Shown here one piece after another: positions 14,258-20,000 of a stretch of DNA of 20,000 nucleotides (its first letter is position 1; each line of letters opens with the position of its first letter). The stretch lies in the IMG/VR virus record IMGVR_UViG_3300042893_000829; one strand, given 5' to 3'. The notes under the pieces were generated by a model. It saw only the letters and a list, made by a program, of their open reading frames with translations. It was not told the DNA's origin and did no database searches. Both the position numbers and the translations under genes were made by a program. The DNA is from an uncultured virus (IMG/VR IMGVR_UViG_3300042893_000829) (taxonomy: Duplodnaviria > Heunggongvirae > Uroviricota > Caudoviricetes).

Positions 14258-16312
14258 ATGATAGAATTTATTGATGAGGGAGATAAAAATAAAAAAAAAC
14301 CTGAAGGGGGTGGAACACCAGTTTTAGATAATTTTAGTAAAGATTTAATTAAACTTGCAAGTCAAGGAAAATTAGACACAGTGATTGGTCGTGAAAAAGA
14401 GATTTTAAGAATTGCCCAAGTATTGTCAAGAAGGAAAAAAAATAACCCCATCATTATTGGAGAACCTGGAGCGGGTAAAACGGCAATAGTTGAGGGTCTT
14501 GCAATGATGATACATAATGGGGATTGTCCTAAAAATTTATCCGAAAAAAGAATTGTTTCGTTAGACATTAATTCAGTTGTTGCTGGTACAAAATATAGAG
14601 GTCAATTTGAAGAGAGAATGAAGGTGATTATTGAAGAGATACAAAGTAACCCAGATATAATTATTTTTATAGATGAGGTACACACAATGGTTGGTGCGGG
14701 TAATAGTTCAGGGTCATTAGATGCATCAAATATATTCAAACCAGCATTATCTCGTGGTGAAATACAATGTATTGGGGCCACAACATTAGACGAATACCGT
14801 AAACATTTTGAAAAGGACGGAGCTCTTGAAAGAAGGTTTCAAAAAATAATTGTAGACCCTTCAACAAAAGAAGAAACATTAGAAATTTTAAAACAAAGTA
14901 AGGGTAAATACGAAGAACACCATAATGTGAATTATAGTGATGAGTCATTACGTTTATGTGTAGAATTGGCAGATAGATATATAACAGACCGAGAATTTCC
15001 AGATAAGGCGTTTGATATCTTAGATGAGGTCGGTTCAAGAATGCAAATAGATATTAAACTCCCAGAACATATTGAAAAATTAAAACAGATATCTCAAGAT
15101 ATAAAAAGGGAAAAGGCTGAGGTTATTAAAAAACAAAACTATGAGTTAGCGGCAGAACTTAGAGATAGGGAAAAAAATATATTAACACAATTAGAGGCTG
15201 GAAAAAGAAAATTTGAGGAAGAACTTAAAAATAGTAAAAGACATATTCCAGAAGATTTAATTTATGAAGTTGTGTCTAATATGACTAAAATTCCTGTAAG
15301 TAAAATTAATATTGATGAAAAAAATTCATTAGTTAGTCTTGAAAAGACTTTAAATTCTACGGTTATTGGTCAAGAGGATGCGGTTGGAAAAATATCAAAA
15401 TCAATTAGAAGAAATAGAGTTGGTATTAAAGATCCTAATAGACCTATTGGGTCATTTATTTTCTTGGGGTCAACCGGTGTTGGTAAAACGTTTTTGGCTA
15501 AAAGATTGGCTAAAGAAATTTTTGGTAATGAAGATAGTTTAATTAGAGTTGATATGTCTGAATACCAAGAAAAACACACCATCTCTAGATTAATTGGGTC
15601 ACCTCCAGGATACGTTGGTCACGAAGAAGGTGGACAACTTACAGAACAAGTTAAAAACAAACCATATTCGGTTATTTTATTTGATGAAATTGAAAAAGCA
15701 AATAAAGACATATTTTCAACATTACTCCAGATGTTAGATGATGGACATATGACTGATGGTCTTGGTAGAAAAATCAATTTTAAAAATTGTTTAATAATTA
15801 TGACATCAAACATTGGGGTTAGAAAAGTTCAAGAGTTTGGTGGAGGAATGGGATTTAAAACAAACAATACAAGTGAGGAAGTTCTTGAGGAACATAAAAG
15901 AGACATTATTAAAAAGGAATTAAGTAAGTTTTTTGCTCCTGAATTTTTAAATAGAATTGATGATGTAATTATCTTTAATTCACTTAAAAAAGAACATGTG
16001 GATAAAATAGTTAAACTTGAGATCGATATCCTTATTAAAAGATTAAAATCAATGAGATATAATTTTACATATGAAGAATCTGTTGTTACGATCATATCTA
16101 AGGTGGGGTTTGATGAAACATACGGAGCAAGACCAATTAAAAGGGCAATCCAAAATAAGATTGAAGATTTAATTTCAGAAAAAATACTTCTTAGTGAAGT
16201 TGTTGAGGGTACCGAATATATGTTACTTGTAAAAGAGGGTGAGGAGATTGTAATTGAAGACCACACAATTCAGGAACCAAAGAAACGAGGTAGAAAGAAA
16301 AAGGAGGATTAA
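14258..16312 (+). CDS. clpC: ClpC-type Hsp100 AAA+ ATPase lacking the N-terminal Clp-repeat domain
   Basis: Two AAA modules (GEPGAGKT/IFIDE, GSTGVGKT/LFDEIEK), pore loops KYRG and GYVG, short UVR-like middle domain (QNYELAAELRDRE), ClpP-docking-type MGF loop. Confidence 0.92.
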   Translation: MIEFIDEGDKNKKKPEGGGTPVLDNFSKDLIKLASQGKLDTVIGREKEILRIAQVLSRRKKNNPIIIGEPGAGKTAIVEGLAMMIHNGDCPKNLSEKRIVSLDINSVVAGTKYRGQFEERMKVIIEEIQSNPDIIIFIDEVHTMVGAGNSSGSLDASNIFKPALSRGEIQCIGATTLDEYRKHFEKDGALERRFQKIIVDPSTKEETLEILKQSKGKYEEHHNVNYSDESLRLCVELADRYITDREFPDKAFDILDEVGSRMQIDIKLPEHIEKLKQISQDIKREKAEVIKKQNYELAAELRDREKNILTQLEAGKRKFEEELKNSKRHIPEDLIYEVVSNMTKIPVSKINIDEKNSLVSLEKTLNSTVIGQEDAVGKISKSIRRNRVGIKDPNRPIGSFIFLGSTGVGKTFLAKRLAKEIFGNEDSLIRVDMSEYQEKHTISRLIGSPPGYVGHEEGGQLTEQVKNKPYSVILFDEIEKANKDIFSTLLQMLDDGHMTDGLGRKINFKNCLIIMTSNIGVRKVQEFGGGMGFKTNNTSEEVLEEHKRDIIKKELSKFFAPEFLNRIDDVIIFNSLKKEHVDKIVKLEIDILIKRLKSMRYNFTYEESVVTIISKVGFDETYGARPIKRAIQNKIEDLISEKILLSEVVEGTEYMLLVKEGEEIVIEDHTIQEPKKRGRKKKED

Positions 16313-17138: not shown

Positions 17139-17924
17139 TTAATGTTTGGTGTAACCTAAATTTTCAATCATTAACTTACCAACCTTAATTCCGTTATAGG
17201 TATCCTCAACAACAACATACTCATTTCTTGTATGATAGTTGTAATATCCAATGGAGATATTAAAACAAGACAGACCAAAGTTTTTATTTAGTGGGTATAT
17301 GTCAGTATATGGGTGCCTATGATATTTTGTATCTCCAGGAAAATGTTCCGTTATCAAACTACCCCCAACGTTAAAGAATTCACTATCTCTATTAAACATT
17401 GGTCTGTTCATTAGAAATTCTGAAATCATATTGTTTTCTGGAGCGTCGAATTGAATTACGTACCCGACATTAGTGAAGAATTCAGGATCCGCATTAAACG
17501 AACCTTTACATCCTGTTTCCTCAGCAACAAAAAATGCCGCTTTAAGGTTCGGTAATTCATTTAAAAGTTCCAAACAACCATACACACCACACTTATCATC
17601 ACCGCCAATACCGGTTGGTTCGCCATCATTATTGTAAGCCTTTAAAGAAAGTTTAATTTCTTTCTGGGCATTAGGTAATTGTTCTTCAACAACATTGATT
17701 GAATCAATTGTATGTACGGTATCCGTATGTGCAACCACACAAGGAAAATAATCAATATTCTCATCAGTTTGTTTTGTGGCGTAGATATTGTAAAATTGGT
17801 CAACGTAGAAGGGGATTTTATTTTCCTCCAACCAAGTTGTTATAAAATCAATCATCAAATCTTCTTGATAAGTTTTTGTGGGAACAGATAAAACCTGTTT
17901 TAATAACTCAAAATTTCTTTCCAT
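17139..17924 (-). CDS. Zn-dependent peptidase, M20/M28/M42-like (clan MH)
   Basis: Metal-ligand motifs AHTDTV, GGDDKCG, AEETG, FD, YHT. Confidence 0.87.
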   Translation of the reverse strand: MERNFELLKQVLSVPTKTYQEDLMIDFITTWLEENKIPFYVDQFYNIYATKQTDENIDYFPCVVAHTDTVHTIDSINVVEEQLPNAQKEIKLSLKAYNNDGEPTGIGGDDKCGVYGCLELLNELPNLKAAFFVAEETGCKGSFNADPEFFTNVGYVIQFDAPENNMISEFLMNRPMFNRDSEFFNVGGSLITEHFPGDTKYHRHPYTDIYPLNKNFGLSCFNISIGYYNYHTRNEYVVVEDTYNGIKVGKLMIENLGYTKH

Positions 17925-17951: not shown

Positions 17952-19040
17952 TTAAAAAAATCTTTCTATTATTATTCTACTTTCTTTAAACAATTCTGGA
18001 TGGTAAAGGAATAAGTTTAACCCTTCAAAATCAACGGATCTGTCTTTTGTTATTGATCTAAGGGAACCATCATAATCCGGGTGACTAGTATCATATTGAA
18101 CAACTAAACGAACTTTATTTGTCATTGGATCAATACCTTTAATTACATATTTTATTGTTTTATCTTTTGGTAAAGTTAATACATTTTTAAATCCACCAAG
18201 TTCAATAATCTTATTTAATAAATTTTTATACTCTTCAATATCAACATACTTATCAGAATCTTCAATTTCATCACTTATTTTATCTAATATGTTAGACACA
18301 TCCCTTTGAAATCCCTCACTATCAAAGTCGTTACAATACGTGTTATATTCCAACTCATACCAACCACCGATATTAGTTTTTGTGTATCTACTAATTAATA
18401 AGGTTAAAAGTTCCTTTAGGTCGTATGTGGGACACTTTAATTGTTTATACCAATGATATATAATCCCAACATTTGTTTCATATCTACGTCCATTATATAT
18501 TTCTTTTATTCCAAATCTAACATATGGATTTTTTGTTTCACTATTAATTTCTTCTTTTACTGCCCTTTCTATACAGTCACGATCTCTATAACCATATTCA
18601 TAAATTATTTCATCACTTTCACTTGGGAATGACTGAGTTAAAAATTGCGCTATTTTATCCTTATCTCCACCAATTAATGAAGGATTTAAAAACCTTAAAA
18701 TATTATTAAGTTTTAGGGTGTTAGATTCATCAAAATTATCCAATAAATAACCTTCTCTAAAATCCTCTTCGTATCTATAATAATCTATGTCAGAACCATA
18801 ACTATCATAATTAAATCTTCTATATGTGTATATATCATCATCATCATCAACACCCAGAGTGTATAAAAAATCCTCCTCATCTGGAAATTCAATAATAATA
18901 GTACTTGCTTTTTTATTATCCTTGTCTTGACTAATATAATCCACCAGTTTGTCATCAGTATATATGGTTCTATTCCAGGACACATCTTCTCCTTTAACTA
19001 ATTCGTCTAGCAATTCATATAACTCACTATTTTTCTCCAT
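17952..19040 (-). CDS. Hypothetical protein (362 aa, Asp/Glu/Tyr-rich)
   Basis: Long intact ORF with TATTTAT at 19046-19052; no recognised motif. Confidence 0.75.
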   Translation of the reverse strand: MEKNSELYELLDELVKGEDVSWNRTIYTDDKLVDYISQDKDNKKASTIIIEFPDEEDFLYTLGVDDDDDIYTYRRFNYDSYGSDIDYYRYEEDFREGYLLDNFDESNTLKLNNILRFLNPSLIGGDKDKIAQFLTQSFPSESDEIIYEYGYRDRDCIERAVKEEINSETKNPYVRFGIKEIYNGRRYETNVGIIYHWYKQLKCPTYDLKELLTLLISRYTKTNIGGWYELEYNTYCNDFDSEGFQRDVSNILDKISDEIEDSDKYVDIEEYKNLLNKIIELGGFKNVLTLPKDKTIKYVIKGIDPMTNKVRLVVQYDTSHPDYDGSLRSITKDRSVDFEGLNLFLYHPELFKESRIIIERFF

Positions 19041-19061
19041 ATAAAATAAATATCAAAAAAT

Positions 19062-19100
19062 TTTGATTATTGTAATTTTACATTTATATTTGTATTTATA
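19062..19100 (+). promoter_or_regulatory. Tandem promoter signals for tmRNA: TTTG-N19-TATATTTG followed by TATTTATA
   Basis: TTTG 19062-19065, TATATTTG 19085-19092 (Bacteroidota -33/-7 consensus), TATTTATA 19093-19100. Confidence 0.65.
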
Positions 19101-19123
19101 ATATAACAAGTTATTTGACATAT

Positions 19124-19523
19124 GGGGGTGTTTTTGGATTTGACAGGTATTGGCTGAAGACAAAGGGCACGTGGAGACTGAATTAATCTCCTTAAAAACT
19201 GATTCACAAAAACAATCGGCGACGTTTTATCGAAAATGGAAACTCTTGGTTTACTAAGAGGTTCTGAAGTTACTGTAGCCTAATAGGTTTACGGAAACGG
19301 GGGGTCGGTCAGACAGATAACCTAGCAACAGAAGTCGTTGATGAGTTTGTTTTCACTCTAAAAGAAGACAAAACGGGCGTGGTTCCCCGTAAGAACTACC
19401 ACCGTCGCTGAGTGGTGTGAGAACTCAGATATTTCGGAAGGTATAACAAACCTTGACCTAAACGTGTAGTCCTTCTCTGACAGGATATTATGGACCGGAG
19501 TTCGAGCCTCCGCACCTCCACCA
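19124..19523 (+). ncRNA. ssrA: tmRNA (one-piece, 400 nt); tag (A)GDVLSKMETLGLLRGSEVTVA**
   Basis: 5' GGGGGUG pairs with 3' CACCUCC-ACCA including G3:U70; GGAUUUGAC D-loop-like segment; T-arm CGGAG-UUCGAGC-CUCCG; PK1 (GGAGA/UCUCC with UGAAU/AUUCA); tag frame 19218-19286 with stops in a hairpin loop. Confidence 0.95.
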
Positions 19524-19528
19524 AATGT

Positions 19529-19556
19529 AAACCTCATCTTCGGATGGGGTTTTTTT
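19529..19556 (+). terminator. Intrinsic terminator after tmRNA
   Basis: AAACCUCAUC-UUCG-GAUGGGGUUU followed by a U tract. Confidence 0.88.
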
Positions 19557-19607
19557 ATGCGCCATAATTATATTTTAGTGTTGTGCGAATATTATATTTT
19601 AAAGCAC

Positions 19608-19653: not shown

Positions 19654-19827
19654 TTATTTTTTTGTTGTGTCAGAAACAACTTCACTTGTTGTTAAAGTAG
19701 AATCTGATACGTTTGTTACTTCCTCAGTCGAAACTTCAGTTGTTGCTCCATTTCCGTTTTCACCACAAGCCGTCATAAGAGTGATTGTCGTAAAAATAGC
19801 GATAGAAAAGAAAATTAATTTTTGCAT
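19654..19827 (-). CDS. Small lipoprotein (57 aa; below ORF-track cutoff)
   Basis: MQKLIFFSIAIFTTITLMTA-CGENGNGATTEVSTEEVTNVSDSTLTTSEVVSDTTKK: basic N-terminus, hydrophobic stretch, lipobox-like MTA-C at Cys21; followed by a terminator. Confidence 0.8.
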   Translation of the reverse strand: MQKLIFFSIAIFTTITLMTACGENGNGATTEVSTEEVTNVSDSTLTTSEVVSDTTKK

Positions 19828-19865
19828 GCTTTCAATTTAATTTAAAGTTTATGTTAAAAATAAAA

Positions 19866-20000
19866 ACCTGAGATTACAGTTTTTTTTAAGTGTCTTTCGA
19901 GTCATTATTGGTTCTACTCTTATCCACAGGATTTTGTCCCGTAACACTCATTACCGATTGGTTAGACCAATCACCCCTTGACGATACAACTACTCTCTTA
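19866..20000 (-). ncRNA. Probable 3' end of a large structured ncRNA (possibly GOLLD/ROOL-class), truncated by window edge
   Basis: Nested minus-strand helices: 19956-19972 hairpin, 19926-19942 hairpin, 19943-19950 with 19887-19894, and 19988-19997 with 19870-19881. G:U pairs work on the minus strand; GC is above the intergenic background. Confidence 0.5.

Follow-up and report, generated by a model that had tools for sequence, protein, structure and literature searches.

The stretch of DNA analyzed here, 20,000 nucleotides (nt) of an uncultured virus (IMG/VR record IMGVR_UViG_3300042893_000829) and hereafter called the window, carries a one-piece transfer-messenger RNA (tmRNA) gene, ssrA, whose reading frame encodes a tag of 21 residues ending in VTVA. 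An initial annotation of this DNA had described the tag as about twice the usual length, and this is what we find, with 21 residues against the 9 of the tags GENNYALAA and GENTYALAA. The tmRNA is almost certainly genuine and functional, judging from its conserved anatomy, and would depend on the alanyl-tRNA synthetase (AlaRS) and the SmpB protein of the host. We consider it somewhat probable that it is a working phage tmRNA of the Bacteroidota type, the long tag of which would be read by a specific partner as a degradation signal.

The window corresponds to bases 64471-84470 of a virus record of 91,986 bp. The CheckV completeness of this record is 31%, and the phage genome is therefore about 300 kb in size. 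The phage is T4-like, and the genes in the window encode a portal of T4 type, a large terminase and a prohead protease, followed by the first part of a gene for a capsid protein of gp23 type. The first 24 nt of the tmRNA are matched exactly in 79 loci on viral contigs, and three relatives that share the tmRNA have genomes of 257-304 kb that are 99-100% complete. The tmRNA has no match by blastn among 50,697 deposited phage records, and its exact 24-nt 5′ end is absent from all of the 185,579 bacterial and archaeal species genomes scanned. By portal, the closest cultured phages are Microcystis phage Mel-JY01 (42.8%) and Flavobacterium phage immuto (39.8%), and the host signal is ambiguous. The tag statistics below are drawn from the 75 of the 79 loci with a complete tag region, among which the 72 full-length tags represent 27 nucleotide versions and 17 peptide versions; the structural statistics are drawn from an alignment of 35 distinct tmRNA sequences.

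The tmRNA gene and its structure

The features of the tmRNA in the window, all on the + strand, are listed below.

19124..19523, +, one-piece tmRNA gene (ssrA) with CCA encoded (Rfam RF00023, 100.9 bits; relatives; RNA contigs)
19124..19130, +, 5′ strand of the acceptor stem, GGGGGTG, pairing with 19513-19519, third pair G:U
19173..19206, +, pseudoknot 1 (PK1), stem 1 at 19173-19177/19187-19191 and stem 2 at 19179-19183/19202-19206
19218..19220, +, resume codon GGC (Gly), 11 nt 3′ of PK1 (Rfam model alignment)
19218..19283, +, tag frame, 21 codons GDVLSKMETLGLLRGSEVTVA (19218-19280) followed by TAA (19281-19283)
19243..19260, +, additional hairpin within the tag frame (codons 9-15) that the 9-codon tags of Bacteroidota do not have (folding)
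19273..19294, +, helix 5, with the stop UAA in its loop (minimum free energy or centroid fold, five of five lineages)
19284-19286, +, second stop TAG (sequence reading)
19496..19512, +, T arm, 5-bp stem and 7-nt loop (4 of 5 pairs changed on both sides)
19520, +, discriminator A (sequence reading)
19521-19523, +, encoded CCA (sequence reading)
19529..19552, +, terminator-like hairpin and T run directly 3′ of the tmRNA (consensus scan)

The match to RF00023 at 19124-19523 covers the complete model (positions 1-374) with 100.9 bits against a gathering cutoff of 47 (E = 9e-39), and the relatives score 94-129 bits. The acceptor stem has seven of seven standard pairs with G:U at pair 3 in all 35 aligned sequences and is invariant. 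The G3:U70 pair is an alanine identity element that directs AlaRS. In PK1, both sides have changed in 5 of the 10 pairs, and pairing holds in 99-100% of cells. Nine pairs with two-sided changes are found in PK1 and the T arm together, a number that was reached in 0 of 500 shuffles. Across the alignment 98.1% of cells pair, compared with 41-59% when the partners are slid by one to three columns. The consensus scan also found three terminator-like sites in the region, versus 0.7 expected. A phage tmRNA with an intact tRNA-like domain and PK1, as initially annotated, is thus present, and the coordinates proposed then all hold.

Of the two programs suggested for checking the gene, the Rfam model confirms both the locus and the resume codon, whereas ARAGORN made no call at the locus in the window or in the whole record, even at a lowered threshold. 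Three ARAGORN calls elsewhere in the window or the record were rejected as spurious. This program recovers the tmRNA in only 11 of the 79 loci, and there are five different tag calls among the nine of these that belong to the family.

Several related loci depart from this structure. One of them (L008 512-724, − strand) has a tmRNA of 213 nt that scores 93.9 bits, lacks pseudoknots 2-4 and contains a 13-codon frame, GNVLDNLSVVGLN, and appears to have arisen by a natural internal deletion. In three loci (L012 122-345, L042 1088-1311 and L080 1074-1295) a group I intron (RF00028, 90-96 bits) splits the T loop of the tmRNA, and the same was seen by eye in L069 and L082. Introns in the tmRNA T loop have been described in bacteria of 21 phyla (PMC11915505). 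The 3′ tRNA-like part of the tmRNA in L029 is divergent, with a 3′ acceptor strand that by eye is seemingly not complementary to the conserved 5′ strand, and this tmRNA may be a recombinant or a decaying copy.

The resume codon and the tag frame

The resume codon placed 11 nt after PK1 by the initial annotation is supported by two alignments. GGC at 19218 falls on the resume codon of the Rfam model, and it is invariant in all 27 distinct tag versions. In a global alignment it also coincides with the GGC that opens the tags of Pedobacter and Weeksellaceae, behind a similar A-rich leader.

The tag frame is conserved in the relatives, being exactly 21 codons long in 72 of the 75 loci. The three exceptions are L041 and L075, which are permuted tmRNAs of another kind, and the internally deleted L008; among full-length versions the tag length is constant (72 of 72). 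The frame had been described as closed by TAA TAG. Both stops are present in the window, but only TAA is general, a stop directly following it in just 7 of the 75 loci, so that TAG is not conserved.

The other two frames contain internal stops in 27 of the 27 (+1) and 23 of the 27 (+2) distinct versions. Variable columns at codon positions 1, 2 and 3 number 15, 7 and 18 of 21, respectively. The ratio of nonsynonymous to synonymous polymorphism (pN/pS) over the whole tag is 0.57 in frame versus 0.78 and 2.32 in the other two frames, and over codons 2-14, which lie outside helix 5, it is 0.48 versus 0.65 and 2.20. Leu4 is encoded by TTA, TTG, CTA or CTT among the versions, Arg14 is kept through AGA and CGT, and Gly11-Leu12 is invariant though GGT/GGA and TTA/CTT alternate. 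The resulting pattern is G-[ND]-[VT]-[LI]-x-[KN]-[ML]-[ES]-[TVA]-[LVI]-G-L-[LVI]-[RSA]-[GET]-[SQE]-[EQD]-V-T-V-[AS], with the C terminus VTVA, and a terminal Ala, in 67 of the 72 loci and VTVS in the other 5.

A canonical SsrA degron has about 10 residues and an ALAA or LAA-COOH end, and the 21-residue tag has neither. A different resume codon that would give a canonical tag was looked for, and no frame yields one. The +1 frame (ATFYRKWKLLVY in the window) was rejected; it is closed after three codons in L005-type relatives. Later in-frame resume points, called by ARAGORN in some relatives (ATEQVTVA and AKLSTLGLIRTEEVTVA), were rejected as well, because codons 2-7 are conserved in a coding style and because GGC occupies the place of the resume codon in the alignment with bacterial tmRNAs.

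The frame overlaps two hairpins. The hairpin at 19273-19294 is the true helix 5; Rfam had put the inner hairpin on helix 5 and forced the real helix 5 into PK2 at low posterior. Inner pairs of helix 5 change together between lineages (GCCU/AGGC versus GCUU/AAGC, as read from the alignment), and its outer five pairs hardly vary and are therefore uninformative on covariation. The in-frame hairpin is preceded by about seven unpaired codons in the five lineages folded. It is found at the same place in relatives, built from other sequences, and since the lineages pair in different registers there is no single register for covariation scoring. Relative to the Bacteroidota tags of 9 codons, the frame in the phage has gained a hairpin of about 12 codons, and this internal gain accounts for the extra length of the tag.

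Presence in RNA libraries

Parts of the stretch are matched by 18 RNA runs. We examined four of them, which are lake or freshwater metatranscriptomes from four studies. All four runs contain contigs over 19114-19520, with a likeness of 90-99% and lengths of up to 402 nt, and their differences, such as the change of codon 15 from GGT to GAA, match sister variants. On one side the contigs adjoin Illumina adapter sequence at 19114 or 19132, and on the other side they do so at 19516 or 19520. No contig from these runs covers 18000-19071 or 19541-19607, and this lack of cover was not used as evidence.

A proposed pathway

The conserved anatomy of the molecule suggests the following pathway. The tmRNA would be made as a discrete stable RNA, charged with alanine by host AlaRS through the G3:U pair, and brought to stalled ribosomes by host SmpB. 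Translation would resume at GGC 19218, the nascent chain would receive Ala plus the 21 encoded residues, and the helix 5 loop would supply the UAA at which translation ends. The front part of the tag, N-V-L-x-K-M/L-E/S-x-L-G-L, may bind a reader or an adaptor, and the C-terminal end, E-V-T-V-A, may be engaged by an unfoldase; such a tag would resemble the two-part tag of Escherichia coli rather than filler. By this means the phage could free ribosomes during infection and decide the fate of truncated proteins. The initial annotation had also suggested that tagged chains might be routed to a phage-encoded unfoldase and that the tmRNA might counter host defenses that cleave RNA.

Candidate partner proteins

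SmpB was not found with PF01668 in the record of the window or in any of 30 related records that carry the tmRNA, three of which are 99-100% complete, nor with TIGR00086 in five of the related records. Because no SmpB was found in this phage clade, host SmpB would be required. ClpP was not found in the record of the window or in five relatives, three of them 99-100% complete. A Bacteroides genome served as the positive control for these searches, and both families were found in it. The initial annotation had referred to a phage ClpC plus ClpP; the ClpC is present, and the ClpP is the part that was not borne out. Two genes upstream of the tmRNA are relevant here.

14258..16312, +, unfoldase of the ClpC type with two AAA+ modules; the N-terminal domain is lacking and an MGF loop occupies the ClpP-docking position
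17139..17924, −, peptidase, M20/M42-like, between ClpC and the tmRNA (PHROG 4191 'peptidase', E = 3.9e-35)

The phage ClpC contains the Pfam domains AAA_2, AAA_lid_9, AAA, ClpB_D2-small and UVR, and aligns with residues 148-799 of Staphylococcus aureus ClpC (6em8; E = 1.6e-214). The motifs GEPGAGKT, KYRG, GSTGVGKT and GYVG and the MGF loop are seen in this alignment, which includes both Walker sets and the pore loops. The protein thus has the two AAA+ modules, the UVR-bearing M-domain and the [LIV]-G-[FL] docking loop of the ClpC class. It has no Clp_N domain and begins at S. aureus ClpC residue 148. The N-terminal domain of ClpC binds MecA-type adaptors and phospho-arginine. An [MVI]GF loop and a short N terminus are common to all eight phage ClpC homologs read. 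ClpC is present in all 30 of the related records at a distance of 2.0-4.7 kb from the tmRNA (2.8 kb in the window), and across these records the identity of ClpC falls to 57-61% and that of the tmRNA to 63%.

In one complete relative, ClpC is in two pieces 1.7 kb apart (G003:C1:31829-32038 and 33703-35571, residues 2-72 and 63-684), as would be expected if an intron, an intein, a homing endonuclease or a similar element had been inserted. The peptidase also has a Pfam M20 match below the cutoff (E = 1.8e-4), and it is a possible candidate member of a ClpC/tmRNA pathway.

Long tags and unfoldases in other phages

We then considered whether long tags and ClpC occur together in other phages. A generic tmRNA 3′ end was used to sample 80 viral loci, in which ARAGORN called 57 tags. 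Forty-eight of these are 8-16 residues long and nine, some of them doubtful, have at least 20 residues; the end is AA in 53 of the 57 and VA in one. A ClpC-like match was found in none of the 48 loci with tags shorter than 20 residues and in two of the nine with longer tags (L238 and L282). A third locus, L267, has a ClpC-like match too, but no ARAGORN tmRNA call; L238 and L267 belong to the present tmRNA family. L282 comes from an unrelated complete phage of 296 kb (G009) with direct terminal repeats, a permuted tmRNA and a 31-residue tag (ARAGORN). Located 7 kb from this permuted tmRNA is a gene for a protein of 649 amino acids (G009:C1:157027-160914; L339 1417-3366, − strand) with a novel N-terminal part, a single AAA+ module resembling ClpC D2, and a VGF loop.

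Three published huge phages have a ClpC homolog (49-57% identity). Two of them are without a tmRNA above the Rfam cutoff, and in the third (LR756508.1, 484 kb) the tmRNA is 360 kb away from ClpC. This tmRNA (92434-92880; L092) scores 72 bits, and its frame from the aligned GGC has 36 codons and ends in KPAAV. The same genome has a separate molecule of 112 nt consisting of the tRNA-like domain only (414804-414915; L095; 58 bits). The long-tag loci L228, L280 and L296 have no ClpC in the DNA examined, which in these cases comprises contigs that are 9-14% complete or very short. The link between a long tag and a phage unfoldase is therefore seen in two independent lineages, both of jumbo phages, and is a lead, not a result.

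What might read the tag

From the sequence comparisons, the tag is most likely a signal for a specific partner. Its conservation at the peptide level leads us to infer a specific reader rather than mere escape from proteolysis. Several observations weigh against the favored explanation as a whole. The Ser end in 5 of the 72 tags does not fit a strict requirement for a C-terminal Ala. A pN/pS of about 0.5 represents moderate constraint, and positions 5 and 13-16 vary freely. The conservation is in part at the RNA level, as helix 5 has the last five codons as one of its strands and the inner hairpin consists of codons 9-15. The existence of the 213-nt form with a 13-residue tag in L008 means that the full form is not indispensable everywhere. 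The RNA contigs are assembled from related strains and show presence, not level, strand or exact ends. Finally, the host of the phage, likely of the phylum Bacteroidota, is placed by inference only.

As the reader of the tag, phage ClpC acting on host ClpP is the leading, though rather doubtful, candidate, with the ordinary host proteases next. This candidate is a special case of the explanation favored above, to which it adds the name of the reader: the phage ClpC without its N domain would read the tag on host ClpP, the peptidase would finish the peptides, and the route would be orthogonal to host ClpXP. In support of it, ClpC stays within 2.0-4.7 kb of the tmRNA in the window and in all 30 related records despite the divergence of the sequences, and the eight homologs keep the Walker sets, the pore loops and the [MVI]GF loop while missing the domain that binds adaptors. 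ClpC-like matches in the sample occur at none of the 48 short-tag loci but at two of the nine long-tag loci, plus L267, and the unrelated L282 combines a 31-residue tag with a D2-only AAA+ protein carrying a VGF loop 7 kb away. However, synteny inside one clade is a single observation rather than 30, and the two independent lineages are both jumbo phages, which carry many extras. Among the published huge phages with ClpC, two are without a tmRNA above the cutoff and one has the two genes 360 kb apart, and the long tags of L228, L280 and L296 are without ClpC in their fragmentary contigs. A scenario in which a clade of lake phages of about 300 kb uses a private tag that host ClpX does not read, that phage ClpC reads on host ClpP, and whose products the peptidase recycles is a speculative extension of this and a little more doubtful. 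If it were true, long tags would be a mark of phage-owned disposal routes, and the link in G009 would be a recurrence of it.

The possibility that the tmRNA provides capacity only is about as doubtful. It would offer extra rescue while host mRNA is being destroyed, ClpXP, Lon, FtsH and the tail-specific protease would handle the hydrophobic end, and the extra 12 codons would be a by-product of an RNA hairpin that is needed or tolerated. The extra codons do coincide with a hairpin that each lineage keeps through different sequences, the middle of the tag is variable at positions 5 and 13-16, and the C terminus is still a small hydrophobic run, with Ala as its last residue in 67 of the 72 loci. 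Host SmpB and ClpP are needed by the phage anyway, and published views stress the upkeep of hijacked machinery (PMC9004378, PMC7162821). A by-product would not explain, however, why codons 2-7, which lie outside both hairpins, have undergone synonymous changes while their residues (N/D, V, L, K/N and M/L) were retained, why Arg14 is kept across AGA and CGT, or why the length is 21 codons in all 72 full-length versions. Nor is the ending typical of phages, VA having been met just once among the 57 sampled tags and AA in 53.

It is improbable that the tag is not a degron at all, so that tagged chains would escape host proteolysis, as the initial annotation had suggested they might, or go elsewhere (to the membrane or into aggregates), sparing phage proteins that are tagged by accident. 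Unlike the 9-residue tags of Bacteroidota, this tag does not end in ALAA; it ends in Ser in 5 of the 72 loci, and hydrophobic residues at positions 3, 4, 7, 10, 12 and 13 could form an amphipathic helix. Escape, on the other hand, requires no particular sequence, yet the length and many residues are conserved, and a comparison of the tag with all open reading frames (ORFs) of the 92-kb record found no likeness and no similar C terminus (best blastp-short E = 0.17). Least probable, and very unlikely in our view, is a decoy RNA that titrates host SmpB or blocks host trans-translation. Such a role has a precedent in the molecule of mycobacteriophage DS6A, which consists of a tRNA-like domain only (PMC4131195, PMC11915505). 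The absence of SmpB from the phage records searched and the tRNA-like-domain-only relative in LR756508.1 (112 nt, 58 bits) would be compatible with it. A decoy could do without a reading frame, yet conservation extends to the frame and its resume codon, to PK1 and to the stop in helix 5.

What is at stake differs between these explanations. If a protease chosen by the phage reads the tag, the latter would be a naturally occurring degradation signal, compact and orthogonal, and this would be the first virus to rewrite the end-point of bacterial ribosome rescue and not merely to boost it. If ordinary host proteases handle the tag, the finding would simply add another phage tmRNA whose tag is unusual. 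Surveys based on ARAGORN overlook an abundant clade, whose exact 5′ end is found on 79 viral contigs and which is present as RNA in lake metatranscriptomes of four studies.

Neighboring RNAs and genes

A GOLLD RNA (RF02032, 287.7 bits, E = 1e-81) is located on the opposite strand, 340 nt 3′ of the tmRNA.

19865-20000, −, GOLLD RNA (RF02032), continuing past the window end to about 20269 (G000:C1:84335-84739; L001 2242-2646)

It is covered by contigs of all four metatranscriptome runs, with adapter sequence abutting at 19868. GOLLD has been described near tRNA genes in phage-derived DNA (PMC6582537), and our literature search found no paper that places it beside a tmRNA. Between the tmRNA and GOLLD there is an ORF of 57 residues (19654-19827, − strand) that starts like a signal peptide and has a Cys following LMTA, the product of which looks like a lipoprotein. 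It is accompanied by a terminator-like hairpin at 19634-19611, and similar ORFs are found in 4 of the 79 loci within the DNA examined.

Outside the window, a cluster of six tRNAs called by ARAGORN includes a candidate with the anticodon TTA, which reads the stop UAA (G000:C1:91428-91502, − strand; L002 2323-2397). The Rfam tRNA model did not report this candidate at the gathering cutoff. Of the 68 long ORFs, 49 end in TAA, and with the standard code 90% of the record is coding. If real, this ochre suppressor would read through the UAA of the tmRNA itself and create extra non-stop events.

The gene directly 5′ of the tmRNA (17952-19040), which encodes 362 amino acids, gave no lead in Pfam, PHROG or Atlas, and neither did a gene encoding 256 amino acids. 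The 362-residue product was dropped as a fixed partner of the tmRNA, since its gene adjoins the tmRNA in only 42 of the 79 loci.

Comparison with known systems

Bacterial tmRNAs for comparison were collected with a degenerate 5′-end pattern; 80 of at least 120 loci were read, with 46 ARAGORN tmRNA calls. Among the matches listed, they are mostly from Pedobacter and other Bacteroidota, with the tags GENTYALAA or GENNYALAA. The phage tmRNA has the same architecture, the same GGC resume position and a similar A-rich leader. Its 5′ end differs at 1 of 24 nt from that of a tmRNA in a Weeksellaceae metagenome-assembled genome, and it shares the motif GGATTTGACAGG with Pedobacter tmRNAs. Overall identity to Bacteroidota tmRNAs, however, is only 44-49%, no higher than to those of Desulfurella or Vampirovibrio, so that it is the 5′ end and the resume region on which the assignment to the Bacteroidota type is founded. 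The phage tag differs from the 9-residue Bacteroidota tags with their ALAA end in its 21 residues, its VTVA end and its extra in-frame hairpin, and, unlike the Bacteroidota tmRNAs, the phage tmRNA is carried by a phage in which no SmpB was found.

The unfoldase resembles the ClpC of Firmicutes (S. aureus 6em8 and Bacillus subtilis 3j3s) over D1, the M-domain with UVR, D2 and the ClpP-docking loop. Firmicutes ClpC has an N-terminal domain and a ClpP partner, whereas the phage ClpC is without the N domain and no ClpP was found in the phage records searched.

Phage tmRNAs are known from several groups. According to one ARAGORN survey, about 2.3% of phage genomes carry a tmRNA (PMC9004378). Two-piece forms are described in OM43 phage Melnitz and pelagimyophages (PMC9004378), and other tmRNAs in the mycobacteriophage Bxz1 group and Bacillus phage G (PMC4131195) and in huge phages (PMC7162821). 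Like the present tmRNA, these are found in large, often T4-like or jumbo phages, and the roles proposed in these sources are ribosome upkeep or selective tagging. The surveys (PMC7162821, PMC9004378) are based on ARAGORN, a program that misses most of the present family. Our literature search found no description of the present 21-residue tag, and the supplementary tables of the phage surveys may list such genes.

The most frequent length of a tmRNA tag is 10 amino acids (PMC11915505). In Mycoplasma and Mesoplasma florum, Lon takes the place of ClpXP as the reader of a longer tag (Gur and Sauer 2008, in PMC9382460). As described there, the tag of Mesoplasma florum is, like the phage tag, long and without an ALAA end, and is a known precedent for a switch of protease. 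The two tags have no sequence likeness, and the likely host phylum of the phage has ClpP and SmpB, as seen in the Bacteroides control. Phage tmRNAs and long tags are thus already known, and the present tag is a variant of them.

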